From Pyrinomonadaceae bacterium (GTDB taxonomy: Bacteria; Acidobacteriota; Blastocatellia; Pyrinomonadales; Pyrinomonadaceae): a stretch of 64,000 nucleotides of DNA. Each line of letters opens with the position of its first letter. The first letter of the stretch is position 1. The stretch covers positions 918 to 64,917 of the forward strand of contig JBBKXD010000087.1 of NCBI GenBank assembly GCA_037969295.1. The letters are read 5' to 3'. Position numbers and translations under genes: made by a program. This document shows, in pieces, positions 32,313-47,227 of this stretch. A model generated the notes under the pieces. The model saw only the letters and a program-made list of their open reading frames with translations. It was not told the origin of the DNA and made no database searches.

Positions 32313-32642
32313 ATGGAAGGCATATTGTGGTTATTGGTGATCGCTGGATTCTTCTATTTCATGATGAGGTTCGGCTGTGGCTCTCACATGGTACATGGTC
32401 ACGGAGGCCATGGAAAGCACGGGGGTCAGGATGATTCAGTCGAAGTGGTGAAGGGTCACGGTACCCACGGGGGGCACGCCGTGCAAGGAAGCGTCGGCCC
32501 CGATCCAACAGATCCGGTGTGCGGAATGGAAGTAAATCCGGCATCCGGTTATGGACGCATGTACGAGGGCAAGGAATATCGCTTCTGTTCACGAACGTGC
32601 TTGGATCAGTTTGACGCTGAGCCGGCGCGCTACACCAGTTAA
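32313..32642 (+). CDS. YHS/TRASH-domain protein with an N-terminal TM helix and a His/Gly-rich tract
   Basis: DPVCGMEVNPASGY...YRFCSRTCLDQFDAEPARY (YHS motif), preceded by HMVHGHGGHGKHGG...GHGTHGGH. Confidence 0.8.
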   Translation: MEGILWLLVIAGFFYFMMRFGCGSHMVHGHGGHGKHGGQDDSVEVVKGHGTHGGHAVQGSVGPDPTDPVCGMEVNPASGYGRMYEGKEYRFCSRTCLDQFDAEPARYTS

Positions 32643-32655
32643 AGAGGAGATGACA

Positions 32656-32919
32656 ATGAAACAAGGACTTTCATTAGTAGCAGTGGGTTTCGCGACCAGT
32701 TTGTTCCTGGCCATAACCTTTGTCTTGTGTGTTGGGTTTGACCTTTTGTTTCCGGCCCACGCGATGTTCCAGGCGTGGCAAAAGTTACTGCCTGGCTTCC
32801 AGTGGCTGAGTTGGGGCAGTTTCTTTCTAGGACTAATTGAGAGCTACGCCTACGGTTGGTATATCGCACTCATTTGGGTGCCGCTTTACAATGTTTTCGC
32901 TCTGAGGAAGCAGCGATAG
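32656..32919 (+). CDS. small 2-TM membrane protein, paralogue 1 of 4 (DUF5676-like from memory)
   Basis: Shares the ...LP.F.WL...GF.LGLIES..YG.Y...WVP.YN pattern with 35638-35907, 43745-44005 and 46955-47227. Confidence 0.6.
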   Translation: MKQGLSLVAVGFATSLFLAITFVLCVGFDLLFPAHAMFQAWQKLLPGFQWLSWGSFFLGLIESYAYGWYIALIWVPLYNVFALRKQR

Positions 32920-33051
32920 ACCGATTTGTTAAGCGTCGGTCTCAACCAACAGACGACACCGCCGTCTTGTCGAAGGTGGTCGAAATGCGAGAAACCGGGC
33001 AGATTGAGACCAAGCTCGACGAAGAAGTGAAAACTAATAAAAGAGAAAATA

Positions 33052-33424
33052 ATGAGAATACTACTAGCGACAGATGGGTCGGAGCAAAGCCAAGCAGCGG
33101 TCAATGAGATCGCGGCCAGGCCTTTTCCGCCTGATACGAGCATTCGGATTGTTTCGGCTTATGAAAAGGACCTCACTACTCACTCGTGTGGAACCGATGG
33201 GAGTGTCGGAGGAGTTTTATGCCAGAGCTGACCATAATGCCTTAAAGACGGCTGAGGATGCGTCAGAAAAAACCAATTTTGACTGTGACAACATGCGGAC
33301 CGGCAGCATGAGGCAAGTAGATAGAACGGCAAAAAAGGCGAATGTTGTCGCCGCAATCACGAGGTTGGAATCAAACGGAAACATCGTCGCCGCGGCGCTT
33401 TTCCAATTTTACATGACTAATTAA
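33052..33424 (+). pseudogene. decayed universal stress protein gene
   Basis: MRILLATDGSEQSQAAVNEIAARPFPPDTSIRIVSAYEK is a good USP N-terminus. The frame then breaks near 33165, and the C-terminal ATP-binding G-x2-G-x9-G(S/T) region cannot be recovered in any frame. Confidence 0.4.
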
Positions 33425-33440
33425 CTTAAAGGAGATAACT

Positions 33441-34010
33441 ATGCAAGCACATGCAGGACACATGATGGAGAAGATGGAAGAGCCGGAAACGGCAGAGAAA
33501 AGTGCGGTCGTGGCAATCTACGACACCCACTGAGAGGCCGAGGAAGCGGTCCGTGAGCTCGAGAAATCGGGGTTTGATATGCAGAAACTGTCGATCGTCG
33601 GCAAGGACTACCAGACGGAAGAAGAGGTAGTTGGCTATTACAACACGGGCGATCGTGTGAAAAAGTGGGGTAAGACCGGGGCCTTCTGGGGCGGTCTATG
33701 GGGACTGTTGTTCGGATCGGCGTTCTTCCTCGTGCCCGGTATCGTTCCGTTGCTCGCAGCCGGACCGATAGTCGGCTGGATCGTTGGTGCACTGGAAGGC
33801 GCGGTAGTGGTCGGGGGTCTGAGCGCTCTTGGCGCCGGGCTTTACGGCCTCGGGATTCCAAAAGACAGCATCATCGAATACGAAACGGAGATCAAAGCCG
33901 GCAAATACGTGATCATTACACATGGCTCTCCGGACGAAGTGAGCAAGACCGAAGGCACGCTTTCGGCGACCAAGCATCAAGGGATGAAAAAGCATTCCTG
34001 CTGTGCGTAA
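33441..34010 (+). pseudogene. general-stress/DUF1269-like membrane protein interrupted by an in-frame TGA at 33531-33533
   Basis: A strong RBS (ggag) precedes the ATG at 33441. It reads ...AVVAIYDTH*EAEEAVRELEKSGFDMQKLSIVGKDYQTEEEVVGYYNTGDRVKKWGK...Gly-zipper TM...IPKDSIIEYETEIKAGKYVIITHG. The track ORF 33579-34010 is the same frame downstream of the stop. Confidence 0.6.
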
Positions 34011-34026
34011 GTTGTTTCACGAGAAA

Positions 34027-34078
34027 ACGGCGGCGGCAATGTCAAACGACCGTAACGGGGGCCGCCGTCATCTTTTGC
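34027..34078 (+). terminator. possible terminator after the DUF1269-like gene
   Basis: acggcggc ... gccgccgt stem with a long loop, followed by tcatcttttgc. The U-tract is weak. Confidence 0.3.
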
Positions 34079-34150
34079 TATTAACGAGTCGGAGTGATGG
34101 AGGTCTCGTCTATCGCGGCATCGGGAACGCGCTTTTAGGGGGAAATTAAG

Positions 34151-34345
34151 ATGGATTGGGTATTGGCAAATTGGTTTTGGATTCTGATTTTTGGACTATT
34201 CATCGCGATGCACCTTTTCGGTCATGGCGGACATGGGGGACATGGCGGAGGTCATCAGCACGGTAGTAAGACGGGGGACGAAAAGAACGGAGACGAAACA
34301 CAAGCTAACACTGGAAATACCAGTTCGAGCGGTCATGAGCACTGA
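34151..34345 (+). CDS. small His/Gly-rich membrane protein (DUF2933-like from memory)
   Basis: One TM helix followed by HLFGHGGHGGHGGGHQHG. Confidence 0.55.
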   Translation: MDWVLANWFWILIFGLFIAMHLFGHGGHGGHGGGHQHGSKTGDEKNGDETQANTGNTSSSGHEH

Positions 34346-34414
34346 GCGGGCGCGATTTCAGAAAAATATAAGGATTTAATTGTGCCCGCCCGGCAACAAT
34401 TCGAGGAGGAAACT

Positions 34415-35638
34415 ATGTTAGCAAAACAGGCATTAGACAAGACGCTGGACAAGACATTGGACAAAATATTCGGGCATCTCTCTGGCGAGTCCTTTGCGGT
34501 TAAATACGGGGACGGCACGACCGAAAGCTACGGGGAAGGCGAGGCGCAATTTACAGTCAAGCTCAATGATTACGACCTTCTCAGCTTGATCGGCGACGAT
34601 ATGTTGACAACTTTTGGCGAAGCCTACATGGACGGGCGTGTGGACCTAGACGGCGATCTCGCTGACTTGATGTCGCTTGCCCTGAAGAGTGGTCTGATGT
34701 CTGTTACGCATACTACCCAAGGCTTTGCGGGTGCGGGTCTTAGGATAGCCGGCAAGGTACGATCGCTCGGCCACGTGAAGGAAAACATAGCCCGCCATTA
34801 CGATCTCGGCAACCATTTCTTTCGCCTTTGGCTCGACGAATCGCTGACTTATTCGTGCGCTTATTTTCGTAAGGCGTCCGATACGCTCGATGATGCGCAG
34901 CGGCAGAAAATCGACCACTCCTTAAAGAAATTGCGGCTGCAACCCGACGAAACTCTGCTCGACATTGGCTGCGGTTGGGGCTCGTTGGTTATGCGGGCGG
35001 TCGATCATTATAACGTAACGGCAACGGGGATTACGCTCAGCGAGGAACAACATGCGGGTGCGAAATCGGCAATTGAAGAAAGAGGCCTGCAAAGTAAAGC
35101 CAGTGTGAGGCTGTTAGATTACAGTGCCCTGCTGAAGGAAGGAAAACAATTCGACAAGATAATCAGCATCGGGATGATCGAACACGTCGGAAAAGAAAAT
35201 CTTTCGGGGTTTGTCGAAACGGTTGAGAAACTGCTCAAGCCGGGCGGATTAGCTCTACTGCATTTGATTACAAATGTTGAAGAAGGCCCGATCAACCGTT
35301 GGATAGAAAAGCACATTTTTCCGGGCGGCTATATTCCAACACTACCCGAAATTATTTCGCATATTGCGGCACAGGATTTCCGTGTTTGGGATGTCGAAAA
35401 TCTAGCCGATCACTATCGATTAACGCTTGACCGTTGGTCCGAACGCTTCGAGTTTGTCGTGCCGACGGTGCGTGAACAATTTGATGAAAGATTTGTGCGT
35501 ATGTGGCGGCTGTATTTGCGGGCATCTTCCGCCGCATTTCGTGAAGGCGTTGTCGAAGTTCATCAGATCCTCGTTTCACGCGGGAAGCCCGAAGATCTGC
35601 CGCTCACTCGTGATGACCTTTATCAGGAGCGGAAATAA
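34415..35638 (+). CDS. cfa: cyclopropane-fatty-acyl-phospholipid synthase family SAM methyltransferase
   Basis: HYDLGNHFFRLWLDESLTYSCAYF, LLDIGCGWGSL (SAM motif I) and FPGGYIPTL. The ATG at 34415 follows aggagga. Confidence 0.85.
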   Translation: MLAKQALDKTLDKTLDKIFGHLSGESFAVKYGDGTTESYGEGEAQFTVKLNDYDLLSLIGDDMLTTFGEAYMDGRVDLDGDLADLMSLALKSGLMSVTHTTQGFAGAGLRIAGKVRSLGHVKENIARHYDLGNHFFRLWLDESLTYSCAYFRKASDTLDDAQRQKIDHSLKKLRLQPDETLLDIGCGWGSLVMRAVDHYNVTATGITLSEEQHAGAKSAIEERGLQSKASVRLLDYSALLKEGKQFDKIISIGMIEHVGKENLSGFVETVEKLLKPGGLALLHLITNVEEGPINRWIEKHIFPGGYIPTLPEIISHIAAQDFRVWDVENLADHYRLTLDRWSERFEFVVPTVREQFDERFVRMWRLYLRASSAAFREGVVEVHQILVSRGKPEDLPLTRDDLYQERK

Positions 35639-35907
35639 TGCTGAATATCAAAATCGTTAGTTGGTCGCTTGGTATTTTTACCGCTATCAGCTTCATCCTA
35701 TGCGTTATTTACGGATTGATCCTGCCATCGAGTTTACATATGCATCAAGCTCTTGAAGTCGTGCTGCCCGCCTTTAAGTGGTTGACCTTCTGGGGGTTTT
35801 GTCTGGGATTGGTCGAGAGTTTTCTTTACGGCGTTTACGTCGGTCTCGTGTTCGTCCCGATTTACAATTTTATCTGGCAACGGTCGGGCGTGTCGGCAAA
35901 GGAGTAA
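35638..35907 (+). CDS. small 2-TM membrane protein, paralogue 2 of 4 (DUF5676-like)
   Basis: MLNIKIVSWSLGIFTAISFILCVIYGL... is ~70% identical in protein to 46955-47227. Its ATG overlaps the cfa stop by 1 nt. Confidence 0.6.
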   Translation: MLNIKIVSWSLGIFTAISFILCVIYGLILPSSLHMHQALEVVLPAFKWLTFWGFCLGLVESFLYGVYVGLVFVPIYNFIWQRSGVSAKE

Positions 35908-35995
35908 CTGGGCGGCTCGTCGTTACGGCGGGGCGATCTGGGGTAGAAAGTAACCACCTCATTATGGACAAACCAACGGAGACAGAAGGACGATT

Positions 35996-36484
35996 TTGAA
36001 AATGGTAAGAATTAGTGCTTTTACAAAGAACAACTTAAATAAGCAAGGATTTGGAAAACTTGATGATGAGGCTAAATCCCGTTATGCGTTGCCGCTGCGG
36101 TTTACGCCCGCAGTAGGCACCACCTTGATCGTCATCGGGCTTGCCTTGCAGTCGCCCATTTGGCTGGGGTCAATGGCACTTGTTACTTTAAGTGGAGCTC
36201 TACTGCCAAGCGGCATGTTTATTGATCTGGTTTACAACTTCGGTGTTCGCCATTTGTTCCGTGCACAACCGCTGCCACCTACACCAAAGCCTCGACAGTT
36301 TTCCTACCTTCTTTCTACCGGCGTTCTGACGGGTTCAGCCTTGTCCTTCTATTACGGGCTATCAGTGTTGGGGTTTATCCTGGGCGGAATGGTTGTCATA
36401 GGGGCCACAATCCTTACTACCACGCTTTGGTGTCTTGGATCGTGGTTCAACGGGCTGATTTTTGGGTATGAAGCGACAGATTAG
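35996..36484 (+). CDS. membrane protein, DUF4395-like
   Basis: Four hydrophobic segments and a LDDEAKSRYALPLRFTPAVGT N-region. The family call is from memory only, and the start is ambiguous (TTG 35996 or ATG 36002). Confidence 0.4.
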   Translation: MKMVRISAFTKNNLNKQGFGKLDDEAKSRYALPLRFTPAVGTTLIVIGLALQSPIWLGSMALVTLSGALLPSGMFIDLVYNFGVRHLFRAQPLPPTPKPRQFSYLLSTGVLTGSALSFYYGLSVLGFILGGMVVIGATILTTTLWCLGSWFNGLIFGYEATD

Positions 36485-36619
36485 TGGAATCCACGGAGAA
36501 AAGACCATGACCGAATTCAGCAAAATTCGTCACATCTCAACGTGGATGGACATCGCCTGCATTAGTCTGGTTCATGCGTGGCTAGGTGACTCTATTGGAG
36601 CAAACTAAAGGCTTTTGGC

Positions 36620-37894
36620 ATGGTAAGTAAACATCTATTAATACTTCTCGCCTGCTTGTTCGTCGTCATGATCGGCTTCGGCATTACGCTGCCGGTGCTG
36701 CCCTTTTATATAGAGCGTCTGGCGCTCCAAGCTGGAGCATCGCCGCAATCGAGCGTGCTGCACGTAATGCTTTTGACAGGCGTTTATCCGCTAATGCAGC
36801 TCTTCTTTGCTCCTTTGTGGGGTCGCTGGTCGGATCGTATCGGCAGAAGACCGTTGATCTTAATCGGAATCGGCGGTTATGTCGTAGCTCAGGTTCTCTT
36901 CGGTCTATCGACATCGTTGTGGTTGCTCTATGCGGCGCGTATCGTTGGGGGCGTTTTGTCGTCTGCGACCCTCCCCGCATCGGCCGCCTATGTTGTCGAT
37001 ATTACGACGAAAGCTGAACGCAGTCGCGGAATGGCATGGCTCGGCACGGCGGCCAGTCTCGGCGTGGTCGTCGGACCCGCACTCGGGGGGGTGCTCTCGC
37101 GGCGAGACTGGCATTTTAATTGGAGTGCTGCCGGACATTTCAAGATTGACAGCTTCTCGATTCCGTTTTTCGTAGCGGCATTGTTGGGTCTACTGACGCT
37201 CATCGCAGCGTTTCGGTGGCTGCCCGAAACAGTTTCCAGAACCTGGGGTCAGGAGACAGAAACGGCAGTCGTTCCAAGTGAAAAAATGAAAACGGACTGG
37301 CGAACGCTTCTGAAGGCCTTATCCCCGTTGCTTGCTTTGACTCTCGCCGGACAATTTGCATTAACAATGTTCGAGGGAACGTTCGCTCTATTTGCTCAGG
37401 CAAAGTTCGATTTCGGTCCCGCCGAAGTCGGTTACGTTTTTGTCGTGTGCGGGCTGGTGATGACCGTTTTTCAGGCTGGAGCAGTCGGGTTTCTCGCCGG
37501 TAAGATCAGTGAAATGGTTCAAATCGGCACCGGCTTTGCGCTGATGGGAACAGGAATCGCGTTGTTGGCGACAGCACAGACCAAATTCTTTATTTTTGCG
37601 TTCGTCGCACTGCTCGCCTTAGGAATGGCATTCATCGCTCCGAATCTTGCCGCTCTCATATCAAAACGCGGCGGAGAACGGCAGGCGGGAGCTTCGCTCG
37701 GTATTCAGAATGCGGCCAACAGTCTAGGTCAGGCGGGCGGACCGCTACTCGGCGGGGTGTTATTCATCTGGCAGATAAACGCGCCGTATCTTTTGAGCGG
37801 AGCGTTGCTCATCACGCTCGCTCTGGTTATTGCATGGAAGGTGATGTCGCGGCGACAGGTCGCCGGATTAGAAGGAATTTTAGAACAGACATAA
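36620..37894 (+). CDS. MFS transporter (DHA1-like, 12 TM)
   Basis: GRWSDRIGRRPLILIG motif A between TM2 and TM3. The overall topology is 12 TM. Confidence 0.85.
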   Translation: MVSKHLLILLACLFVVMIGFGITLPVLPFYIERLALQAGASPQSSVLHVMLLTGVYPLMQLFFAPLWGRWSDRIGRRPLILIGIGGYVVAQVLFGLSTSLWLLYAARIVGGVLSSATLPASAAYVVDITTKAERSRGMAWLGTAASLGVVVGPALGGVLSRRDWHFNWSAAGHFKIDSFSIPFFVAALLGLLTLIAAFRWLPETVSRTWGQETETAVVPSEKMKTDWRTLLKALSPLLALTLAGQFALTMFEGTFALFAQAKFDFGPAEVGYVFVVCGLVMTVFQAGAVGFLAGKISEMVQIGTGFALMGTGIALLATAQTKFFIFAFVALLALGMAFIAPNLAALISKRGGERQAGASLGIQNAANSLGQAGGPLLGGVLFIWQINAPYLLSGALLITLALVIAWKVMSRRQVAGLEGILEQT

Positions 37895-37904: not shown

Positions 37905-38126
37905 ATGGATCATAAAAGTCATATAGACCCCGTTTGTGGTATGCGGGTGGAAAAGACGAATGCAGCCGGAGAGTATGAACATGAAGGGTTGATGTATTAC
38001 TTCGACAGCGAGGAATGCATGAAGCTGTTCTACCAACACCCGGAACAGTATACACACAAGTCAGCTACGGACGAACTTGGCGATTCCTCGCAAGTGAGTG
38101 AACCGAGTGAGAAGGAGTTAAAATAA
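37905..38126 (+). CDS. YHS/TRASH-domain protein
   Basis: DPVCGMRVEKTNAAGEYEHEGLMYYFDSEECMKLFYQHPEQY. Confidence 0.8.
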   Translation: MDHKSHIDPVCGMRVEKTNAAGEYEHEGLMYYFDSEECMKLFYQHPEQYTHKSATDELGDSSQVSEPSEKELK

Positions 38127-38268
38127 GGAACTATTTGAAGGTTTTATGTGGGGAATTCTTTAGGATCGTCGCGTCGGTGATTGAGAAGCGTTATAAAGCT
38201 GACCGATGAAGTCACGTAAACTTTTTTGAACATTGTCCGAGGATAGTACTCGGACGGGAGCAGCAACT

Positions 38269-39411
38269 ATGAATACAGAAACTACTAACCAAATAGAAAA
38301 TGGAATTATCGTCGTAACCGGATCAAACGGCAGGATCGGCGATGCGGTTATGCGGCGGTTCGCGGGTCGGTTTGGGGAGGTTGTTGGTTTTGACCGCAAG
38401 GTGGCAAGCCCGCCTCCGCCCGGCTGTAAGTATATTCCCATCGAAATCACTTCGGACGAAAGTGTGCGCGAAGGCTTACGTGTTCTCCGTGAGCATCATG
38501 GATCGCACATAGCATCGGTTGTCCATCTTGCTGCTTATTACGATTTCTTCGGCGAGCCAAGCGAGAAGTATGACGAAATAACTGTGCGCGGAACTGGACG
38601 ATTACTCAATGGCCTGCAGGAGCATGATTTCAAAGTCGAGCAATTCATTTTTTCAAGCACAATGCTGGTCCATCGACCCGCCGAACCGGGAAAGTTTATC
38701 ACCGAAGATTGGCCGATCGAGGCGACCTGGGCTTACCCTGAGTCAAAAGTTCGCACTGAACAGATTATCCACGAAGAGCGCCGCGATATTTCGGCTGTGT
38801 TGTTGAGGATTTCCGGTGTATATGACGATTTATGCCACTCGATCCCGCTCGCCCACCAGATTCAGCGAATCTATGAACGCCAATTCACGAGCCGTGTCTA
38901 TTCCGGCAGCACTTCGCACGGACAGTCGTTTTTACATATGGACGATTTGGTTGAAGCAATTGCGCTAACGGTCGAGGGTCGGGCTCAATTGCCGGCTGAA
39001 ATACCGATTCTGCTCGGCGAGCCGGAAGCACTCAGTTATGATGAACTTCAACACACTTTCGCCCGCCTGATTCACGGAGAAGACTGGGAAACGCTTGAAA
39101 TGCCGGGGGTCCTTGCGCCGCTGTCAAAAGCAGGCGCGTGGGTTATGGAGAAATTGCCGGGTGCTGATCCCTTCATCAAGCCCTGGATGATAGATCGGGC
39201 AAACGACCATTACGCGCTCGACATTACGCGTGCCCGCACCTTACTTGGCTGGGAGCCGGAGCGAAGCTTGCGCGAAACCATTCCGAAAATGGTCGCCGCA
39301 CTCAAAGGCGATCCGCTTAACTTCTATCAAAAGAACGATCTGGAATTAACTTCTGAGTTGGAGGAGCAGGCTGAAAAGAAGGCAGAGGGGGGCAAATCCC
39401 GTGGAGCATGA
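38269..39411 (+). CDS. NAD-dependent epimerase/dehydratase-family (extended SDR) protein
   Basis: VTGSNGRIGDAV Rossmann motif and a YPESK catalytic Tyr-x3-Lys. The start is taken at MNTETTNQ. Confidence 0.8.
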   Translation: MNTETTNQIENGIIVVTGSNGRIGDAVMRRFAGRFGEVVGFDRKVASPPPPGCKYIPIEITSDESVREGLRVLREHHGSHIASVVHLAAYYDFFGEPSEKYDEITVRGTGRLLNGLQEHDFKVEQFIFSSTMLVHRPAEPGKFITEDWPIEATWAYPESKVRTEQIIHEERRDISAVLLRISGVYDDLCHSIPLAHQIQRIYERQFTSRVYSGSTSHGQSFLHMDDLVEAIALTVEGRAQLPAEIPILLGEPEALSYDELQHTFARLIHGEDWETLEMPGVLAPLSKAGAWVMEKLPGADPFIKPWMIDRANDHYALDITRARTLLGWEPERSLRETIPKMVAALKGDPLNFYQKNDLELTSELEEQAEKKAEGGKSRGA

Positions 39412-40876
39412 CCATACAAAGGAAACAATGCAGATGCCGCCGGAGAACAAAGACGCTCCGTCATCGGACGAGAAGTCAATGCAGATGCCGGACGGCACAA
39501 CAATGAAGATGTCCGAGCATGGCGGCATGAAGATTTCCGGTGACAAAACGACGGCATCGGGCCAGACGATGGACCATGAGGCAACGGTATGGCCGCACTT
39601 TGCCAATATGATCTTGGGCGTGTGGCTGATAACGAATGTCTTCGCTCTCGGGTACCGAAGCGGCCCTCTTCAGGTAAGCGACGCCGTGAGCGGGGTGCTG
39701 GTCGTCGTTCTTGCCACCCTTTCGGTGTCCGGAACGGGAGCGATCAAATTCTGGTCTCCGTGGGTGAACTCTCTGGTGGGCGTCTGGCTGTTTTTCGCCC
39801 CACTTGTCTTTTGGGCGCCGACATCCGCCGTCTATTCAAACGACACGCTCATCGGAGCGCTCGTTGTCGTCTTTGCCATTCTCGCACCGGGCATGCCAAT
39901 GGCAAAGGGGATGAGCATGGAGCCGGGGCCGGACGTCCCGCACGGATGGTCCTATAATCCATCGAGCTGGCCGCAGCGGGCGCCGATCATCGCTCTTGCC
40001 CTGGTCGGGTTTTTTCTGTCGCGGCAGATGACCGCTTTCCAGCTTCAACACATCACGTCGTTCGCCGATCCGTTTTTCGGCTTCGGGACGGTCAGCGTTC
40101 TCACATCCGATGTCTCGCGCGCCTTCCCGATACCCGATGCAGGGCTGGGTGCATTCGCCTACATGATCGAATTCCTGATGGGCTTTATGGGCGACAAGGC
40201 GCGTTGGCGGACGATGCCGTGGATGGTCACGTTTTTTGGCATCCTCGTCGTACCGCTCGGGGTCGTTAGCATAACGCTCATTGTTTTGCAGCCGATCGCG
40301 GTCGGAGCCTGGTGCACACCGTGCCTTATTGCCGCATCTGCAATGCTTATTATGATCTCGCTCACGCTCGACGAGGTAGTGGCGATGCTGCAATTCTTAG
40401 TCCAGGCAAACCGCGAAGGACAGCCGCTTTGGAAAGTATTCTGGATGGGCGGCTCTCTAAGAAATCCGCCCGAAATTGACGCCGATAATGTTCGCCCAGA
40501 TGTAGTAAGCCCCGGGGCCATGATCTGGGGAGTGACGCTGCCGTTAAACCTGCTTGCCAGCGCGGCATTGGGAATTTGGCTGATGTTCGCTCCATTCGCG
40601 TTTGGCAGCGTCGGAATGGCCGCCCATAGCGACCATCTAATCGGCGCTTTGATCATAACCGCCGCCGTAATTGCTCTAGCCGACGTGGGTCGCTCCGCTC
40701 GCTTTATCAACGTGCTTTTCGGCGCATGGATAATCGTCGCACCGTGGGTTTTGGGAGGCTCCACGTCCAACTCTACGTGGAACGACCTAATCGTCGGATC
40801 GCTTGTAATCCTTCTAAGTTTTCCGCGAGGTAGGATTGGCGATCAATACGGAAGCTTTGACCGGTACATACGATAG
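39401..40876 (+). CDS. polytopic membrane protein: SPW-repeat-like segments fused around a VKOR-like CxxC core, with a Met-rich N-terminus
   Basis: WSPWVNSLVGVWLFFAP-type SPW repeats at both ends and a central WCTPCLIAASAML. The N-terminal tail is MQMP...MQMPDGTTMKMSEHGGMK. It overlaps the SDR gene by 11 nt. Confidence 0.55.
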   Translation: MEHDHTKETMQMPPENKDAPSSDEKSMQMPDGTTMKMSEHGGMKISGDKTTASGQTMDHEATVWPHFANMILGVWLITNVFALGYRSGPLQVSDAVSGVLVVVLATLSVSGTGAIKFWSPWVNSLVGVWLFFAPLVFWAPTSAVYSNDTLIGALVVVFAILAPGMPMAKGMSMEPGPDVPHGWSYNPSSWPQRAPIIALALVGFFLSRQMTAFQLQHITSFADPFFGFGTVSVLTSDVSRAFPIPDAGLGAFAYMIEFLMGFMGDKARWRTMPWMVTFFGILVVPLGVVSITLIVLQPIAVGAWCTPCLIAASAMLIMISLTLDEVVAMLQFLVQANREGQPLWKVFWMGGSLRNPPEIDADNVRPDVVSPGAMIWGVTLPLNLLASAALGIWLMFAPFAFGSVGMAAHSDHLIGALIITAAVIALADVGRSARFINVLFGAWIIVAPWVLGGSTSNSTWNDLIVGSLVILLSFPRGRIGDQYGSFDRYIR

Positions 40877-40973: not shown

Positions 40974-41405
40974 ATGCAACACGATCCAATGATCACAGCA
41001 GTTATTCTAGCGAGAAGGAATGGCGAATCGCTCCATACCGTTCGTCACTATACTCGCATCGGATTGCTCAAACCGATGCGTAACCCTGATAACAATTACA
41101 AGATTTACGACCCGTCCGATGAAATACGTCTTCGATTTATCTGCGCGGTTAAAGGGTTCGGTCTGTCATTGAATGAAATTGCGCTCATTTTGGATGAATC
41201 CCTAACAGGCAAATCGCCGTGTCCCCGGGTTAAAGAAATCATCTCCCGGCGTGTGGAAGAAAACCGCCACAGGATGCAGGAAATAAAACAAACCCAAAAA
41301 CAGATGGAGAAAACTCTCAGCGAGTGGTCTGACCCGAACATCGCCGGACCCGACGGCGATTCTGTAAAGCGTTTCGTTGAATCGCTCGCGAATAGATCGA
41401 ATTAG
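40974..41405 (+). CDS. MerR-family transcriptional regulator (paralogue of 18257-18694)
   Basis: wHTH (RRNGESLHTVRHYTRIGLL) and the same SPCP motif before the dimerisation helix (GKSPCPRVKEIISRR). Confidence 0.85.
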   Translation: MQHDPMITAVILARRNGESLHTVRHYTRIGLLKPMRNPDNNYKIYDPSDEIRLRFICAVKGFGLSLNEIALILDESLTGKSPCPRVKEIISRRVEENRHRMQEIKQTQKQMEKTLSEWSDPNIAGPDGDSVKRFVESLANRSN

Positions 41406-41742
41406 CCAAGCCGTTTTGGAGTTTTGAATCTTTACAGAACGCGAGGAAATTATTTACTATTTGGCGGGTGCTAAATGAGGATCAAATAAATCTCTTTCCT
41501 GGAAAAGACAAATAATCATTCTCATTTCTCTCGTTCATTATCTGGGTCGAGTAGGAGCAGCAGACCCGCAATTGCCGCAATTACACCGACGACGATCCAA
41601 ATCCAAAACCGTGATATTCTCGCGTTAGATCGGAAAACATCAGGAGGGTCATATGTACGATCAAAAAAAACGATACTGTCAAACCTTAAACAATTCCGAC
41701 CAAACGTTTTTTATTCGCCGCCTTTAACCATTTCAAAGTCCT

Positions 41743-43276
41743 TCGATATCAGTGATTCCGGCGGTGTTTTCGGCATATACGAGCGCGTACTCAAGCTCGC
41801 TTTCAGTTTCGGCGTGTATCGTATAAATAGGCTGTCCTGTTTCAACTTTTTGACCAACCGGGGCATGTAATTCCAACCCGGCGGACTGCGCCCGCGGAGC
41901 ACCCGCCCAGCTTTGCTACTTGAGCGAGTTTTCGGTTGTTAATATTCGTTATGATTCCGTCGGCTTGGGCAATGATTGTTTGTGTGAAATCAGCGCGTGT
42001 CGGCTCGCGGAAACCGCCTTGCCTCTCGCAAATGTTCAGGAATTTTTGCCATGCTCTTCCCTCCATCAAGATTTGGGTGGCTATCTGGCGGCCTTGTCCC
42101 TCGGGGATAGTGCGCGACATTTCTATGGTCTTTCCTGCAAGTACCAGTGCCCGTTCGCGTAAGTCTTCGGGTGCCCCCCGCTTCATTCCTGAGAACAGAT
42201 AAAACGTCCCGTGCTTCGAGCGAGGGACCGATACCGCGACCAACCGGCTGAGACCCGTCTGAAATTATCGTGTGAATCTCAAGACCAACGGAACTTCCGA
42301 CCAATGCCAAAAGTTTTCCGAGCGGGCTTGCCGCTTCAAAAGTGCGGTGTCTTGCGGTCGCATCGACCGGAATGTCGATAACCACATGAGTTGAACCGGC
42401 TAACACTTTCTTCGACAGCACCGACGCAACCATTTGACCAACACAATCAAGATCGAGAGCACGTTCGACACGGATCAAATAATCGTCCGCCGGGCTCAAG
42501 TTGAATTCCCTATCCCAAACGATGCAGCCGCCTTCCCTATCTACGACTCTCCGCATCTCCGCCAAGGTAAGATTTACCGGAGCAAGCGTTCCCATGGTGT
42601 CAGCGGTCCCTGCGGGAGAAGTAATCGCTCGCGAAGAAATCTTCGGCATCATAAGACCGTAAGCGGTTACAATCGGCACGACGATCAGACTCGTGCGATT
42701 GCCCGGAAGTCCGCCAAAGGTGTGCTTATCCATGATCGGTGAGCTTCTCCATGAGATCCGCCCACCGTTGTTAATAACTGCCTTGGTTAGATTTATGATT
42801 TCGTCCTGACCCAGGCGATCGCCAGCGCAAGCCGCTAGAAACGCGGCGACATCTAGATCCGAATAGCGCCCCGCGGCTATGTCGCGGATAATTTGTTCGT
42901 AGTCTTCGGGTTCAAGATAGTTTCCGTAAATTTTAGTACGAACTTTGTGAAGCGAAGCGAGCGGTGGCGGATGTGCGAGGTCGACTTTATCGCCTTCTTC
43001 AGCGCCGAGCAATCGCCAGGCGGCCTCCGACAAACCAGCTTCACCCGGCGCAAGCAATCCGTTGTTAACGACATTCAAAGTAGCGACAACGGAGCGTAAG
43101 TTGTTGCGGACCAAAATACGGGACTGAGATTCAAATCCTTCCGAACGACAGACAAAACAATCAGCGCGCATGTAAATTACCGCTTCCTGGTAGGTATCGA
43201 TACCTAGGCGCCTCAGGCGTAACGAATGCCGGCCTCCGCAGCCGCGTAGATCTTCAACTTCAATATTTAGATCCAT
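41743..43276 (-). pseudogene. thymidine-phosphorylase-family protein (~510 aa long form) broken by two 1-nt indels
   Basis: Frame 1 (43276 to ~42190) carries DKHTFGGLPGN and TSPAGTADT. The text continues in frame 2 (APEDLRERALVLAGK...NNRKLAQVAKLGG) and frame 3 (APRAQSAGLELHAPVGQKVETGQPIYTIHAE...*). Both shifts sit in G runs (fwd cccccc near 42175; gcggg near 41905). Confidence 0.75.
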
Positions 43277-43486: not shown

Positions 43487-43502
43487 TGCAAGCCTCGTGC
43501 CA
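43487..43502 (-). promoter_or_regulatory. sigma54 (-24/-12) promoter, exact consensus, minus strand
   Basis: The minus strand reads TGGCAC-GAGGC-TTGCA. It points at the thymidine-phosphorylase-family gene (start 43276). Confidence 0.7.
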
Positions 43503-43643: not shown

Positions 43644-43659
43644 TGGCACGTTCATTGCA
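43644..43659 (+). promoter_or_regulatory. sigma54 (-24/-12) promoter, exact consensus
   Basis: TGGCAC-GTTCA-TTGCA, 86 nt upstream of the GTG start at 43745 (RBS aggagg). It is divergent from the promoter at 43487-43502. Confidence 0.75.
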
Positions 43660-44104: not shown

Positions 44105-44257
44105 ATGACAACACATAAAGATCCGGTCTGCGGTATGCAGATCGATGAAGAAGATGCCGCCGGGCAATCTGATAACAACGAGCAGATTTTCTATTTTTGT
44201 TCGTTACATTGCAAAGATAAGTTTGATTCTAATCCACAGGATTTCGTCAGCGATTAG
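44105..44257 (+). CDS. YHS/TRASH-domain protein (50 aa, below the ORF-track cutoff)
   Basis: Hand translation gives MTTHKDPVCGMQIDEEDAAGQSDNNEQIFYFCSLHCKDKFDSNPQDFVSD*. Confidence 0.75.
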   Translation: MTTHKDPVCGMQIDEEDAAGQSDNNEQIFYFCSLHCKDKFDSNPQDFVSD

Positions 44258-44303: not shown

Positions 44304-44720
44304 ATGAAAGCTCAACAAGTTGGAAAACAGGAATTTGGTTTTAGCCGGACCGTTGATACGCATTTTGACGAAGCAATAGGGCGTGTACGCTTAGCATTGA
44401 AGGCAGAAGGTTTCGGCGTCCTTTCCGAAATACGTTTGGATGAAAAGCTAAAGGAAAAACTCGGCGTAGATTTTCGCCGTTATGTAATTCTCGGCGCGTG
44501 CAATCCGTCGCTTGCCTACAAAACTCTGCAAGAGGACATAAATATTGGACTGCTGCTGCCTTGTAACCTCATTGGCTATGAGGCGGATGACAAGGACAGA
44601 TCGATTGTCGCAGCGGTTGATGCGGAGGCGATGCTTTCGGTTGTCGGGGAAAACGCTGCAATGAATGACGTGGCAAATGAGGTCAACGAGCGATTGCGAA
44701 GGGCAATCGAACAGGTTTGA
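44304..44720 (+). CDS. DUF302-domain protein
   Basis: GFGVLSEIRLDEKLKEKLGVDFRRYVILGACNP...LLPCNL pattern typical of DUF302. Confidence 0.78.
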   Translation: MKAQQVGKQEFGFSRTVDTHFDEAIGRVRLALKAEGFGVLSEIRLDEKLKEKLGVDFRRYVILGACNPSLAYKTLQEDINIGLLLPCNLIGYEADDKDRSIVAAVDAEAMLSVVGENAAMNDVANEVNERLRRAIEQV

Positions 44721-44759
44721 ATTAAAGTTTAGTTGTTCGAATAAAATTAAGAGGTAATT

Positions 44760-45305
44760 ATGAAAAAACAAATGTTGGTGATTTTGACAGTACTTATGGC
44801 GATTCTTTTAGGCGTTGGTTTTGTGGCAGCTCAGGACGCTAAAAAGATGGACAAAGACAAGATGAAGAAGGACATGATGATGGATATGGATGCCATGAAA
44901 AGTGGTCCACATCATTCGGTAATGATGGCCTATAAACAAAACGTCCTTACGTTCGCGAAAACTCTTCGCGATATGTCGAAAGGCGGTAAATTGGCGGATG
45001 TTGACCTGGCCAGAAACGCTTTTGCAGAGATCAAACAGAGTATGGAGAAAATGGAAGCGATTCAACAATCGCATATGACCAAGATGAGTCCGGAAATGCG
45101 GGAAAAGATGAAGCCGATGATGGAGAAAATGCAGGCTGATAAGGTCGCCGTTAAGGAACACGTCTTAGCTCTGGAAAAGGCTTTGCAGGCCGATTCGCCG
45201 GACGCGTTGGAGGTAGAAAAACATGCTACTGCGCTTGTTTCACAACTTGAAAAGATGAGTATGTCGGATAAGAAGAAGGAGATGCCCGACAAAATGAAAA
45301 ATTAA
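44760..45305 (+). CDS. secreted Met/Lys-rich protein of unknown function
   Basis: Signal peptide (LVILTVLMAILLGVGFVAAQ). About 26 Met in 181 aa by hand count, in MxxM/MMM/KM clusters (KKDMMMDMDAMK, MTKMSPEMREKMKPMMEKM). Confidence 0.6.
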   Translation: MKKQMLVILTVLMAILLGVGFVAAQDAKKMDKDKMKKDMMMDMDAMKSGPHHSVMMAYKQNVLTFAKTLRDMSKGGKLADVDLARNAFAEIKQSMEKMEAIQQSHMTKMSPEMREKMKPMMEKMQADKVAVKEHVLALEKALQADSPDALEVEKHATALVSQLEKMSMSDKKKEMPDKMKN

Positions 45306-45354
45306 CATGGAAACATCCCCTCCGTCGTTACGCGTCCACAAACTTTGACGTGCT

Positions 45355-46455
45355 ATGAAATCATGGACTCTGAAATTAGGCAGATTTTTCGGAATCGAAG
45401 TATTTGTCCACTGGACCTTTTGGATCCTGATAATTTGGATCTTCCTGATGCATTTTCAGGCCGGACACGACTTGATTCGGGGTCTGTGGGGAGTTCTATT
45501 TATTTTGGTCCTTTTTCTGTGCGTAGTTTTGCACGAATTTGGGCACGCTCTTACGGCACGGCGGTTTGGGGTTTCGACAAAGGATATCACTCTTTATCCG
45601 ATCGGCGGTATTGCCAGTTTAGAAGGAATGCCAGAAAGGCCCGGGCAGGAATTACTGGTTGGTTTGGCGGGGCCTACCGTCAATCTGGTAATTGCTGCTC
45701 TCCTCTGGGTTTACTTGACATCTTCCGGTCAGATCCCGGATTTGTCGGTAATGGGTGCCACAAATGATATGTCTGAGATCCCATTTTTATGGAGTCTGTT
45801 TTTCGCCAATATCGTTCTTGCGGTTTTTAATCTGATCCCCGCCTTTCCAATGGACGGTGGACGCGTTCTTCGGGCAGTGCTTGCTTTTTCGATGGATAAA
45901 GCAAAAGCAACCCGTATTGCCGCCGGTGTCGGCCAGTTTCTCGCTATTATCTTCGTTTTTCTCGGTTTCTTCTACAACTTCTGGCTTGTTTTTATCGGTC
46001 TGTTTATCTATCTCGGAGCTGGCGGCGAAGCGGCTCAGGAAAAAACCAAGGCGGCTCTCGCCGGCCTGAAGGTGAAAGATGCTCTCATGCGGCGATTTAC
46101 CTTGCTGCGGCCCGAGGACAGTCTTGGCCAGGCCGTGGATGCACTTTTGAATAGTCAGGAAACGGAATTTGTCGTTGCGGACTCTCTCAAACCCGTCGGG
46201 TTACTGGGCAAGAACGAAATAATCAGGGGCTTGTCCGAACGCGGAAAAGAATCCTTGGTTCGGGAGTTTATGACCGAGAATTTCTTTCTCGTGAGTCCGG
46301 AAACGGACTTACAAGATTTTCTTCAACAATCTCTAATTAAAGGCCAAAACACGGCGATTGTGATGGATGGAAACGCGCTTCAAGGCTTGATCGACCGTGA
46401 GAATGTCGAGGAGAAACTGTTAGTTAAGGAAGCCTTGAAAAGGCAAAAGGGATGA
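45355..46455 (+). CDS. site-2 protease (M50) family zinc metalloprotease with a C-terminal CBS pair
   Basis: HEFGHALTARRFG, NLIPAFPMDGGRVL, then two CBS-like modules. Confidence 0.85.
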   Translation: MKSWTLKLGRFFGIEVFVHWTFWILIIWIFLMHFQAGHDLIRGLWGVLFILVLFLCVVLHEFGHALTARRFGVSTKDITLYPIGGIASLEGMPERPGQELLVGLAGPTVNLVIAALLWVYLTSSGQIPDLSVMGATNDMSEIPFLWSLFFANIVLAVFNLIPAFPMDGGRVLRAVLAFSMDKAKATRIAAGVGQFLAIIFVFLGFFYNFWLVFIGLFIYLGAGGEAAQEKTKAALAGLKVKDALMRRFTLLRPEDSLGQAVDALLNSQETEFVVADSLKPVGLLGKNEIIRGLSERGKESLVREFMTENFFLVSPETDLQDFLQQSLIKGQNTAIVMDGNALQGLIDRENVEEKLLVKEALKRQKG

Positions 46456-46535
46456 TCGAAGTTAACGCAAACAGTTAGTTTCAGAAGGTGTTGAAATTAA
46501 TTTATGAGCCGTGTTTCGTCGGCTGAAAAGGAGGA

Positions 46536-46787
46536 ATGATCATGATAGAGCATGGATGGCTTGGCGGCATGCATATGTTTTGGTGGATATTTTGGGTGGT
46601 GGCCATAATTTTGTTTTTCGTGTTTATGGAGGCCGAACCTAAACATAAAGCTCGGAAAAGACGTGAAGCGCCTTTAGATATATTAAAACGACGGTATGCC
46701 GCGGGCGAGTTGACCACGGAAGAGTTTAAGGAACGAAAAGCACATTTGGATGAAGACGGGCTAGACCAAAAATCGGGTCAAATGTGA
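46536..46787 (+). CDS. SHOCT-domain small membrane protein
   Basis: One TM helix followed by DILKRRYAAGELTTEEFKERKAHL. The ATG at 46542 is an equally good start. Confidence 0.7.
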   Translation: MIMIEHGWLGGMHMFWWIFWVVAIILFFVFMEAEPKHKARKRREAPLDILKRRYAAGELTTEEFKERKAHLDEDGLDQKSGQM

Positions 46788-46954
46788 TTCGGAGAAGGTT
46801 CGCCGACCGTGATGAATGCCCTTTCTCATCGGTGCAGGATCTGCTTGTGCCTCTCTACCGAGTTCTGTGAAAACTGAGGCATAGAGTTTTCTATCGGGTA
46901 TCGCTGTGGAAAACAGGGCGAAGCCCCTAGGAATCTCTAAAAGGAGCAAGAACA

Positions 46955-47227
46955 ATGTTGAATATGAAAATCGTGAGTTGGTCTCTCGGCATTTTTACTG
47001 CCATAAGTTTCGTGCTTTGCGTCATATACGGCTTAATTGTGCCGAAGGGTTTGCATATGCACGAATTTCTCGAAATGGTATTACCGGCGTTTGAGTGGCT
47101 AACCGTCTGGGGGTTTGTTCTCGGTCTCATCGAAAGTTTCCTCTACGGCGCGTATACAGGAATCGTATTTGTACCGATTTACAATTTACTTTTTTACCGG
47201 TGGGGTGGAAGGCGCAGGCGTGTATGA
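46955..47227 (+). CDS. small 2-TM membrane protein, paralogue 4 of 4 (DUF5676-like)
   Basis: MLNMKIVSWSLGIFTAISFVLCVIYGLIVPKGLHMHEFLEMVLPAFEWLTVWGFVLGLIESFLYG... Confidence 0.6.
   Translation: MLNMKIVSWSLGIFTAISFVLCVIYGLIVPKGLHMHEFLEMVLPAFEWLTVWGFVLGLIESFLYGAYTGIVFVPIYNLLFYRWGGRRRRV

Follow-up and report, generated by a model that had tools for sequence, protein, structure and literature searches.

An Array of Small DUF5676 Membrane Proteins with Candidate Metal-Binding Partners beside a CPD-Type P1B ATPase in a Pyrinomonadaceae Bacterium

Introduction

The P1B-type ATPases are well studied, but the small genes that travel with them are almost entirely uncharacterised, including DUF2933, a family named in the clinically relevant CHASRI island of Salmonella (PMC12582456). 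In Alteromonas, the copA copies that belong to merR–copA–cupredoxin–DUF2933–ICMT clusters are induced by copper (PMC8478169). Here such accompanying genes are described in a 64,000-nucleotide stretch of DNA from a Pyrinomonadaceae bacterium of the Acidobacteriota (contig JBBKXD010000087.1, positions 918 to 64,917), referred to below as the window. It holds four genes for small membrane proteins of the family DUF5676, interspersed with other small proteins and lying downstream of a P1B-type ATPase with a CPD motif.

MerT, MerF, MerE, and MerC are small inner-membrane proteins of MerR-associated islands, with two to four transmembrane (TM) helices; they carry Cys in a TM helix and hand metal to a cytoplasmic domain. 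PcoE and SilE are periplasmic metal sponges rich in Met and His. The signature of the TRASH domain is a Cys triad with the spacing C-x19-22-C-x3-C.

Among the pumps themselves, P1B-3 (CopB) ATPases are defined by CPH in TM6 and a His-rich N-terminus (Argüello classification, as cited in PMC5552934). A survey of Rhizobiales placed pumps with CPD within P1B-3 as an atypical, His-poor, and uncharacterised subtype, “VIc,” and described YHS domains fused to P1B ATPases (PMC5552934). A different kind of precedent is the lxa locus of Burkholderia cenocepacia, which is activated at low oxygen and whose deletion impairs growth on ribose, deoxyribose, and thymidine (PMC3721108).

All domain families of the window are already catalogued, and the DUF2933–ICMT–copA neighbourhood has been published for Alteromonas (PMC8478169). 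The literature searched yielded no description of a DUF2933–DUF5676 pair, of its fusions, of a bias towards CPD pumps, or of a coupling to islands of phosphoketolase and universal stress proteins (USPs); nothing relevant was found on islands that combine phosphoketolase, P-type ATPases, and USPs, or on combinations of YHS, DUF302, DUF2933, and SHOCT. The array belongs among the accessory metal-handling proteins of P1B ATPase islands, and it is widespread and experimentally tractable. The region represents a single copy of a mosaic, horizontally mobile set of genes, the recurring core of which is a P1B ATPase (of the CPD type here), an ICMT-like methyltransferase, and at least one DUF5676 module.

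Results

Four Divergent DUF5676 Genes

Four open reading frames (ORFs) of about 87–90 amino acids, DUF5676_A to DUF5676_D, match the Pfam family DUF5676 (PF18926) with 33.3, 55.2, 80.3, and 55.3 bits, respectively, all above the gathering score of 27.6 bits. A first reading of the window, made from the letters without database searches (the sequence-only reading), had picked out these same four ORFs as paralogues of about 88 residues with two TM helices. The motif that it proposed for them, LP.F.WL...GF.LGL(I/V)ES..YG.Y.....VP.YN (compared here in the form LP.F.WL...GLIES..YG.Y...VP.YN), fits A, B, and D but not C. Its further claim that they are old paralogues rather than recent duplicates is borne out. 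B and D are 72% identical in amino acids and 69% in nucleotides, and use the same codon at 28 of their 64 identical residues; A shares about 41% of its residues with B and D, and C about 25% with the others. B resembles a protein of a different genome (83% identity) more than it does D, so that the four copies are old or xenologous, and recent duplication in situ is ruled out by the codon and identity data. A phmmer search of all window ORFs revealed no further copy. The family comprises more than 4,400 clusters at 90% identity but 933 at 50% (among 1.84 billion representatives), so four copies within 15 kb are far beyond chance. Matches to DUF5676 were found on 36 plasmids.

Pairing and Fusion with Small Partners

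To describe the surroundings of the family, one genome per GTDB species was scanned with an alignment of A, B, and D; at least 547 relatives were found, and the best 80 were analysed as loci, which are biased towards the B/D type because of the query. Homologues of the window's genes in these loci were sought by phmmer in six-frame ORFs, together with Pfam annotation. Two further sets are the 24 genome loci for which the full 10 kb of flanking sequence was available on either side (the full-flank loci) and 45 metagenome loci of at least 10 kb from a separate scan with C-type sequences. The resulting picture of association covers the sampled DUF5676 subtypes.

The most constant partner is the His/Gly-rich protein encoded at 34151. 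Homologues occur in 70 of the 80 loci, in at least eight phyla or classes, and in 62 cases the gene directly precedes DUF5676 in the same orientation, the two being −10 to 133 nt apart. In two more pairs the partners are separated, as in the window, by a cyclopropane-fatty-acyl-phospholipid synthase-like (CFA) gene, and a CFA gene inserted between the two partners is also seen in loci L026, L028, and L033. The window protein scores 18.8 bits against DUF2933 (PF11666), below the cut-off of 21, but it clusters with 65 orthologues, some of which are annotated as DUF2933 in RefSeq; its Polaromonas plasmid orthologue is so annotated, and a marine relative scores 82.5 bits. It is therefore best called DUF2933-like. 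When used as a tblastn query against plasmids it found no match, probably because it is short and of low complexity. It consists of an N-terminal TM helix, an HGGHGGHGGGH stretch, and a C-terminal GHEH. The DUF2933 partners conserve M.W...NW.W......F..MH.FGHGGHGGHG, a variable charged linker, and a C-terminal GH.H; their tails average 6.7 His per 39 residues. The N-terminus of the anchor is acidic, and the His-rich tail is probably cytoplasmic.

The A-type gene has a different upstream partner, a protein predicted to comprise a TM helix, a disordered His/Gly-rich linker, and a small β/α YHS fold. This order recurs in L010, L030, L058, L084–L086, and on a Burkholderia thailandensis plasmid. Two soluble YHS proteins complete the set; one of these adjoins the C-type gene, before or after it, in the window, L001, L025, and L101. 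The three YHS ORFs score 55.5, 60.3, and 45.0 bits against PF04945 (gathering score 30.3). Two of them carry the full TRASH triad, C-x21-C-x3-C in the protein at 32313 and C-x22-C-x3-C in that at 44105; in the protein at 37905 an Asp replaces the middle Cys (C-x22-D-x3-C). DUF5676_D is preceded by a single-TM SHOCT protein, and the same order is found in L025. A conserved neighbour of C-type DUF5676 is a 181-residue helical protein with 14.4% Met, 2.8% His, and a signal-peptide-like N-terminus, which matches no Pfam or NCBIfam model. More generally, no NCBIfam model matches DUF5676, the DUF2933-like protein, the 143-residue Gly-rich protein, or the Met-rich protein.

Most of what the sequence-only reading had said of these partners stands: the three YHS/TRASH genes, including the 50-residue ORF at 44105–44257, are all assigned to PF04945 (45–60 bits); Pfam confirms the DUF302, SHOCT, CMAS/CFA, MFS_1, ICMT/PEMT, VKOR-plus-SPW, and MerR families and adds a DUF4395 protein; and the secreted protein said to contain 14% Met has the expected composition and N-terminus. 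Its proposal of DUF2933 holds by orthology but not by score. Its picture of a repeated pairing is upheld by the 62 adjacent DUF2933 genes and by gene fusions. In other respects it must be revised. DUF302, the Met-rich protein, and SHOCT are not partners of the whole family: DUF302, the Met-rich protein, and the site-2 protease (S2P) are frequent only near the C type and rare around B/D loci, with SHOCT occasional. Nor is a periplasmic placement supported: most metal-binding segments are predicted to be cytoplasmic, the YHS and DUF302 proteins have no signal peptide, and only the Met-rich protein looks exported.

Gene fusions join the same elements in single chains. P0251 combines a TM helix, a YHS domain, and DUF5676 in 225 residues, with both domains above their Pfam cut-offs, and P0245 and P0218 fuse a DUF2933-like TM anchor helix to DUF5676. 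DUF5676 also occurs in tandem, twice in P0201 and P0287 and three times in P0221. These fusions argue for physical association and for oligomers. In L082 the YHS domain is itself fused to a P1B ATPase.

The DUF5676 Hairpin

An AlphaFold2 model of paralogue B (46-sequence alignment; predicted local distance difference test score 79) shows a helical hairpin, with helices at residues 4–28 and 51–82 and a short loop helix, as would be expected of a protein with two TM helices. In an alignment of 143 representatives, one per 50%-identity cluster, the most conserved positions are Cys22 (87%), Pro30 (92%), Met35 (72%), the segment Leu43-Pro44-Gly45-Phe46-x-Trp48 (77%–97%, Gly45 lowest), Gly57 (98%), Glu60 (81%), Gly65 (90%), Tyr64 and Tyr67 (about 75%), and Asn77 (81%). 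A Cys thus lies in helix 1, a Met (and often a His) in the loop predicted to face outward, a Glu in helix 2, and a Tyr-Asn at the C-terminus. At least one His or Met is found in the loop of 97% of representatives, and the C-type loop, PG.MM..T..M.HM(D/E)M, has five to six Met and an invariant His within 15 residues.

The termini of DUF5676 are rich in Lys and Arg and almost devoid of Asp and Glu, and the loop carries a net negative charge. The positive-inside rule would place both ends in the cytoplasm and have the Met/His loop face outward. Judging from the helix register, Cys22 and Glu60 would be no more than about one turn apart and situated in the outer half of the membrane. Membership of the MerT/MerF/MerE group was considered and is ruled out, as no DUF5676 copy matches a Pfam or NCBIfam model of that group and the family has a single conserved Cys.

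A Pump of the CPD Type

The ATPase that heads the array has the (F)DKTGT site, a CPx motif in TM6, and a heavy-metal profile (TIGR01525, 617 bits against a cut-off of 346), and is thus of the P1B type; it also matches the copper P1B profile TIGR01511 (600 bits; cut-off 397) and resembles solved CopA structures. Its motifs are CPD, YN(x)4P, and MSGST in TM8. The N-terminus contains a fold like that of the heavy-metal-associated (HMA) domain but without CxxC, and the pump also has CGYHC...H.C and QEMGHG motifs. It does not belong to P1B-1 (CopA), for which CPC in TM6, M..SS in TM8, and an N-terminal HMA domain with CxxC are diagnostic, nor does it conform to P1B-3 (CopB), of which it shares MS.ST in TM8 but not CPH, and His makes up 1.0% of the whole chain. 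By its sequence it fits the atypical CPD subtype, and its best plasmid relatives include those from the three organisms of the Rhizobiales survey, Xanthobacter, Nitrobacter hamburgensis, and Bradyrhizobium.

Pumps that adjoin DUF5676 in the 80 loci include at least 19 with CPD, about 11 with CPC, and one with CPH. The aligned N-termini of 23 CPD pumps share CGYHC.GE..P.H.C and (A/T)HEMGHG just before the membrane domain. CPD pumps, represented by the window (28397–28950) and loci L017–L100, seem to form a coherent subtype that is common on plasmids of Proteobacteria and Rhodococcus. Genes found beside the closest plasmid CPD pumps are those for major facilitator superfamily (MFS) transporters (three cases), DUF6629, ppk2, or DUF2933 with ICMT.

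Association and Mobility

Within the 24 full-flank loci, DUF2933 is present in 22, a P1B ATPase in 16, YHS in 13, ICMT and MFS in 12 each, a lycopene-cyclase-domain protein in 9, and phosphoketolase in 8. Six plasmid regions that bear DUF5676 were inspected (from Polaromonas, Methylophaga, and B. thailandensis, two from Roseovarius, and one from Alteromonas stellipolaris), and each has a P1B ATPase within about 7 kb; on the A. stellipolaris plasmid the DUF5676 gene lies inside a copA cluster of the Alteromonas kind. The sequence-only reading's view of a recurrent modular set travelling with P1B ATPases is supported by these two samples. The 45 metagenome loci contain ICMT (34), P1B ATPase (26), phosphoketolase (24), DUF2933 (21), and MerR (15), and across the 80 loci ICMT occurs in 29 and phosphoketolase in 17.

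Hosts of the 80 loci include Acidobacteriota, Burkholderiales, Gemmatimonadota, Ignavibacteria, Nitrospirota, Bacteroidota, KSB1, Desulfobacterota, and several gammaproteobacterial orders. Their DUF5676 proteins are 66%–82% identical to the query, which across phyla is much too similar for vertical descent.

Two close relatives of the window retain its gene order, a Joint Genome Institute metagenome contig (L084; 87%–93% DNA identity) and a Pyrinomonadaceae metagenome-assembled genome (L025; about 87%–91%). Compared with L084, the window has an extra segment of about 975 bp (35625–36600) that carries DUF5676_B and DUF4395 and is a recent module gain or loss; a USP gene is truncated, and a thymidine-phosphorylase-like gene is broken over three frames. 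From these three differences the array appears as a mosaic that gains and loses modules. The split gene and the USP remnant are either pseudogenes or sequencing or assembly errors. Directly upstream of its ATPase (959–5281), L084 has a mer-type operon of MerR, a MerT–HMA fusion, zf_CopZ, a pyridine-nucleotide-disulphide reductase, and a transposase, at a position occupied in the window by a USP and DUF6629.

Predicted Sigma-54 Promoters and the Stress Island

The exact sigma-54 consensus TGGCAC-N5-TTGC occurs four times in the window, against 0.11 expected, and all four sites are intergenic and correctly oriented towards operons. The sites are conserved in L025, L084/L085, and L092; that at 27489 also precedes the ATPase operon in L084/L085, and that at 43644 is retained in L025 and L084. 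The second (27489) and fourth (43644) sites have a 52-nt repeat in common. Together with an encoded enhancer-binding protein, these −24/−12 sequences constitute a predicted sigma-54 regulon, and the response regulator at 14810–16219 and the PAS kinase are its likely activators. Scans for sigma-70 promoters and terminators gave results at or below chance, so no operon boundaries were drawn from them. The string of plus-strand genes, as traced by six-frame ORFs and Pfam, is almost unbroken from DUF6629 to acetate kinase, and the array is embedded in a sigma-54 island and apparently co-transcribed with it.

Both MerR-family regulators score 45–79 bits against CueR, ZntR, MerR, and CadR equivalog models whose cut-offs are 143–168, and so fall outside these metal-sensing groups. 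That at 18257 and most of its homologues, including the copA-linked one of A. stellipolaris, keep the SPCP Cys at the start of the dimerisation helix and a C-terminal VCH. The two are paralogues of an unassigned subfamily. The sequence-only reading had placed both within the array (32313–47227); one, at 40974–41405, does lie there, but the other is outside, and the ICMT gene, which it had also counted in, lies upstream of the array, as does the ATPase.

What that reading overlooked is the sigma-54 island of USPs, phosphoketolase, acetate kinase, and nucleoside and pentose genes. Between about 13.2 and 53.3 kb there are three USP genes and a USP remnant, together with genes for LGT, a 6-phosphogluconate-dehydrogenase-like protein, RpiB, a DeoC-family aldolase, phosphoglucomutase, a HAD hydrolase, phosphoketolase, acetate kinase, the NtrC-type sigma-54 activator, and the PAS hybrid kinase. 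A similar mixture recurs in unrelated bacteria, in which the metal pump and small proteins are accompanied by phosphoketolase, acetate kinase, a thymidine-phosphorylase-like protein, Prs, a β-CASP RNase, ppk2, and pta; its carriers are plasmids of Polaromonas, Methylophaga, Roseovarius, and B. thailandensis, a Nitrobacter plasmid, and marine contigs. Pentose-phosphate enzymes and USPs are co-located with the pump and metabolic genes in the window (13215–53300), L081, L087–L090, L097, and L154.

Other Genes of the Window

Coordinates are collected in Table 1. For DUF6629 the likely true start is the ATG at 27623, as the Pfam match begins at residue 68 of a longer ORF; the family is found in 19 of the 80 loci, and homologues of the 143-residue Gly-rich protein in 14. 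An MFS transporter is the usual downstream gene both of the DUF2933–DUF5676 pair and of CPD ATPases. The epimerase/3β-HSD-like gene overlaps the VKOR/SPW gene, and this pair is near DUF5676 in 12 of the 80 loci and in L082 and L084. A chlorite-dismutase-family protein is encoded just beyond the island (55603–56442, minus strand).

Table 1. Features of the Window in Order of Position
Feature	Position	Strand	Basis or remark
Large ORF, 2879 aa	4564–13203	-	Adjoins tandem-USP gene
Tandem-USP gene	13215–14144		Pfam
NtrC-type sigma-54 enhancer-binding response regulator (Sigma54_activat)	14810–16219	+	Pfam
PAS hybrid histidine kinase	16212–18149	+	Pfam
Sigma-54 promoter sequence, exact match, before MerR (18257) and LGT	18202–18216	+	Motif scan
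MerR-family regulator, keeps SPCP and C-terminal VCH(LIE) Cys/His motifs	18257–18694	+	Pfam, NCBIfam, alignment
USP	26498–27061		Pfam
Sigma-54 promoter sequence, exact match, before DUF6629–ATPase string	27489–27503	+	Motif scan
DUF6629 multi-pass membrane protein	27623–28285	+	Pfam
P1B-type ATPase, CPD subtype	28397–30901	+	NCBIfam, motifs
Pyridoxamine-5'-phosphate-oxidase-family (PNPOx) flavoprotein	30940–31518	+	Pfam; syntenic in L084/L085
ICMT/PEMT-like membrane methyltransferase	31550–32212	+	Pfam
TM-His-YHS protein, 109 aa, upstream partner of DUF5676_A	32313–32642	+	Pfam, structure prediction
DUF5676_A	32656–32919	+	Pfam
Tandem-USP remnant, ~80 codons	about 33052–33293	+	Intact in L084 at 309 aa
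Gly-rich membrane protein, 143 aa, C-terminal CC	33579–34010	+	Homologues carry Pfam YflT (general stress protein)
DUF2933-like His/Gly protein, upstream partner of B/D type	34151–34345	+	Sub-threshold Pfam match and orthologues
CFA-like (CMAS/CFA) methyltransferase, between DUF2933-like gene and DUF5676_B	34382–35638	+	Pfam
DUF5676_B	35638–35907	+	Pfam
DUF4395 membrane protein	35996–36484	+	Pfam
TetA-like MFS transporter (MFS_1)	36620–37894	+	Pfam, NCBIfam
Soluble YHS protein	37905–38126	+	Pfam
NAD-dependent epimerase/3β-HSD-like protein	38233–39411	+	Pfam
VKOR protein flanked by SPW repeats	39401–40876	+	Pfam
MerR-family regulator, C-terminal Cys-His lost	40974–41405	+	Pfam, NCBIfam, alignment
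Thymidine-phosphorylase-family gene, split over three frames	41742–43276	-	Pfam, comparison with L084
Sigma-54 promoter sequence, exact match, facing thymidine-phosphorylase-like gene	43488–43502	-	Motif scan
Sigma-54 promoter sequence, exact match, before DUF5676_C	43644–43658	+	Motif scan
DUF5676_C, canonical type, Met/His-rich loop	43745–44005	+	Pfam; PGPTMSMTGAMVHMDM
Soluble YHS protein, 50 aa	44105–44257	+	Pfam
DUF302 protein	44304–44720	+	Pfam
Met-rich helical protein, 181 aa, predicted secreted	44760–45305	+	Composition, signal-peptide-like N-terminus
M50 site-2 protease (S2P) with CBS domain	45355–46455	+	Pfam; conserved neighbour in C-type modules
SHOCT protein, single TM, His/Met-bearing N-terminus, directly upstream of DUF5676_D	46536–46787	+	Pfam
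DUF5676_D	46955–47227	+	Pfam
Lycopene-cyclase-domain membrane protein	47292–48011	+	Pfam
Phosphoketolase	48046–50421	+	Pfam
Acetate kinase	50437–51675	+	Pfam
USP	52371–53300		Pfam

Discussion

What is observed is the family membership of the small proteins, their pairing and fusions, the conserved residues, the co-location with ATPases, and the promoter sequences. From these observations we infer a topology, metal binding, a direction of transfer, an interaction with the pump, an inducing signal, and the identity of the metal, which together would make the array a metal relay or buffer, tethered to the membrane, that works for the P1B ATPase during stress. This reading is favoured, though it is put at somewhat less than an even chance. 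The module would consist of the two-helix DUF5676 hairpin and an adjacent or fused small partner with a metal-binding segment, the partner being a single-helix anchor with a His/Gly tail (DUF2933), the same anchor bearing YHS/TRASH, or a soluble YHS protein. DUF5676 would form oligomers in the inner membrane, its two termini facing the cytoplasm; it would bind a thiophilic or borderline metal at the loop Met (and often His), the helix-1 Cys, and the helix-2 Glu, and exchange it with the cytoplasmic His-rich or YHS segment of the partner. In this way the module might feed or regulate the co-encoded ATPase, the N-terminal domain of which lacks the usual CxxC. The secreted Met-rich protein could act as a periplasmic sponge of the C-type module. 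A relay or buffer is favoured because the partner segments resemble N-terminal domains of other pumps and because this pump has no CxxC.

The whole set would be switched on through the sigma-54 promoters together with USPs and the ATP-yielding route of phosphoketolase and acetate kinase. Such control suggests use in energy or oxygen stress, not simple detoxification, and the purpose of the system may lie in stress or dormancy physiology and not in metal resistance of the classical kind. As to the metal, Cu(I) or Ag(I) is suggested by the richness in Met of both the loop and the secreted protein, and a divalent ion by the His runs and the Asp of CPD. Copper, which the sequence-only reading thought probable, is only a lead, given by the copper-induced copA copies of Alteromonas (PMC8478169) and by the A. 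stellipolaris plasmid on which DUF5676 lies inside a cluster of that kind.

Several points weigh against the relay or buffer. The closest plasmid CPD pumps (Nitrobacter, Xanthobacter, Pseudomonas fluorescens, and Rhodococcus) have no DUF5676 nearby, which makes DUF5676 an optional, dispensable add-on for the pump; an obligatory pump subunit is ruled out by the same plasmids, and the claim of the sequence-only reading that the small proteins accompany the ATPase survives as co-location, not as an obligation. A canonical DUF2933 query matched 126 plasmids, as against the 36 matched by the different, DUF5676 query. One conserved Cys is less telling than the Cys pairs of MerT and MerF, and a Foldseek comparison of the DUF5676 model with the PDB gave no match below E = 4. 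The strongest regulatory signal comes from sigma-54 and a PAS kinase instead of a metal sensor, and the MerR at 40974 is without its C-terminal Cys-His. Many co-travelling genes concern lipids, quinones, and sugar-phosphate metabolism rather than metals. The chance of finding such a gene in a 20-kb window, put at about 1% because a genome carries a handful of them among thousands of genes, is an estimate made by the authors and not a computed genome-wide background, and the loci are non-independent, since many hold a common transferred cassette and the marine set is highly redundant. The literature searched contained no mention of DUF5676 and no experiment on any DUF5676 or DUF2933 protein.

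Three other explanations have to be weighed against a relay. DUF5676, the TM-SHOCT protein, and DUF2933 might be membrane sensors or regulators, concerned with signalling and not transport: either substrates or modulators of the S2P/CBS protease, or small regulatory subunits of the pump like KdpF, FXYD, and phospholamban, so that metal or nucleotide status gates proteolysis or the pump. An M50/CBS protease does occur in the C-type gene string of the window, L025, L092–L094, L096, and L101, a modulator would be expected to be optional for the pump, as DUF5676 is, and small size and tight operonic coupling suit a regulatory subunit. However, the A, B, and D modules mostly lack a nearby protease (one is present in 2 of the 80 loci), no extracytoplasmic function sigma factor or anti-sigma factor was found in the window, and the conserved Cys, Met, His, and Glu, together with partners that are His-rich or contain YHS, would sooner be expected of metal ligation than of a protein that is cleaved. 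A regulatory role is accordingly judged unlikely. The same ligands, read from outside to inside as the Met/His loop, the intramembrane Cys and Glu, the cytoplasmic Tyr-Asn, and the His-rich or YHS acceptor, are in the order that a minimal importer would need. DUF5676 and its anchor would then act like MerT/MerF or CopD, bringing periplasmic metal to cytoplasmic YHS or His acceptors, for metalloenzymes or for routing to the ATPase or MFS exporter. An oligomeric pore is suggested by the two- and threefold tandem fusions, L084 has a mer operon with MerT next to its syntenic cluster, and multicopper oxidases are nearby in several loci. Yet neither Pfam nor NCBIfam nor the fold relates DUF5676 to MerT, MerF, or CopD; it has one Cys and no vicinal pair; with two helices it would be a very small conduit; and no client enzyme is consistently present. 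Import is for these reasons considered quite improbable.

It is also possible, though again with a distinctly low likelihood, that the array is the membrane-remodelling part of a dormancy or low-oxygen island (USPs, phosphoketolase/acetate kinase, nucleoside phosphorylase, CFA synthase, ICMT/PEMT, LGT, lycopene-cyclase domain, and VKOR), in which the small proteins stabilise or reorganise the membrane and their His and Met are incidental. The island supplies much that would fit: four USP genes or remnants with pentose-phosphate, phosphoketolase, and acetate kinase genes on the same strand; four exact sigma-54 promoter sequences with a PAS kinase and an enhancer-binding protein; phosphoketolase near DUF5676 in 8 of the 24 full-flank and 24 of the 45 metagenome loci; acetate kinase, pta, ppk2, Prs, and β-CASP RNase recurring on plasmids and marine contigs; and a gene content like that of the low-oxygen-induced lxa locus of B. 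cenocepacia (PMC3721108). Against this, the partners are built of recognised metal-binding elements (the TRASH Cys triad, HGGHGGH runs, and an MxM-rich loop), there are P1B pumps to which YHS and His-rich segments are fused, and the same modules are found in canonical merR–copA–cupredoxin clusters without the metabolic genes. Moreover, remodelling of the membrane is compatible with a relay, as the island context may tell when the module is used, not what it does.

A bolder form of the metal-handling proposal can be stated as well. DUF5676 and the His-rich or YHS single-helix anchor might constitute a minimal inner-membrane metal conduit (three helices per unit, oligomeric) or a trans-acting metal-binding subunit, dedicated to a new P1B subtype (CPD, with CGYHC/HEMGHG) and hard-wired across phyla to a survival programme of phosphoketolase and nucleoside salvage. 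It is offered as a long shot. If it were true, metal homeostasis would be linked to dormancy energetics.

The analysis provides a concrete unit for experiments, namely the DUF5676 hairpin with its conserved residues, the anchor partner, the fusions, and the CPD pump subtype. If the relay model is true, the module would represent a new class of membrane-tethered metallochaperone and would account for the way in which pumps that have no CxxC domain obtain their substrate. Should the model fail, the conserved association with dormancy-type metabolism would still have to be explained.

Of the described systems, the clusters of Alteromonas and other marine Gammaproteobacteria (PMC8478169) are like the window in combining a P1B ATPase with DUF2933 and an ICMT-like protein, in having a MerR of the same subfamily, and in their location on islands and plasmids; marine metagenome loci extend this type of cluster to DUF5676, acetate kinase, and phosphoketolase. 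They differ in that their pumps have CPC, not CPD, and that a cupredoxin, absent from the window, is present. The DUF5676 and YHS partners go unmentioned in their descriptions, and copper induction was measured for copA only and not for the small genes. The CPD pumps of the Rhizobiales survey (PMC5552934) have the CPD, YN(x)4P, and MSGST motifs and the scarcity of His seen in the window pump. The survey gives neither substrate nor gene context for them, whereas here they are common beside DUF2933–DUF5676, MFS, DUF6629, and ppk2. The YHS and His-rich segments of the window have counterparts in the N-terminal domains and chaperones of P1B ATPases, such as HMA/CopZ, the His tails of CopB, and the TRASH/YHS repeats of P1B-1b pumps (PMC5552934; L082). 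In the window, however, they are separate proteins that would act in trans, anchored or soluble, and are tied to a two-helix protein; their delivery of metal to the pump is only proposed.

Further removed are the Mer transporters. MerT, MerF, MerE, and MerC resemble the DUF5676 module in small size, MerR-associated islands, a Cys in a TM helix, and a cytoplasmic metal-binding domain. They show no similarity to it in sequence, Pfam, NCBIfam, or fold, have Cys pairs in place of one Cys, and are partnered by MerA rather than an ATPase. PcoE and SilE are like the 181-residue Met-rich protein in being secreted, helical, rich in MxxM and MxM, and encoded near a metal pump, but homology is not detectable and the His content of the window protein is low (2.8%). 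In gene content only, the lxa locus and the mycobacterial DosR regulon are like the island, with several USPs, acetate kinase, phosphate acetyltransferase, a metal-dependent RNase, a cation ATPase, and genes for nucleoside or ribose utilisation. The lxa locus is regulated by factors of the Anr/FNR type, and the island of the window by sigma-54, as its promoter sequences predict.

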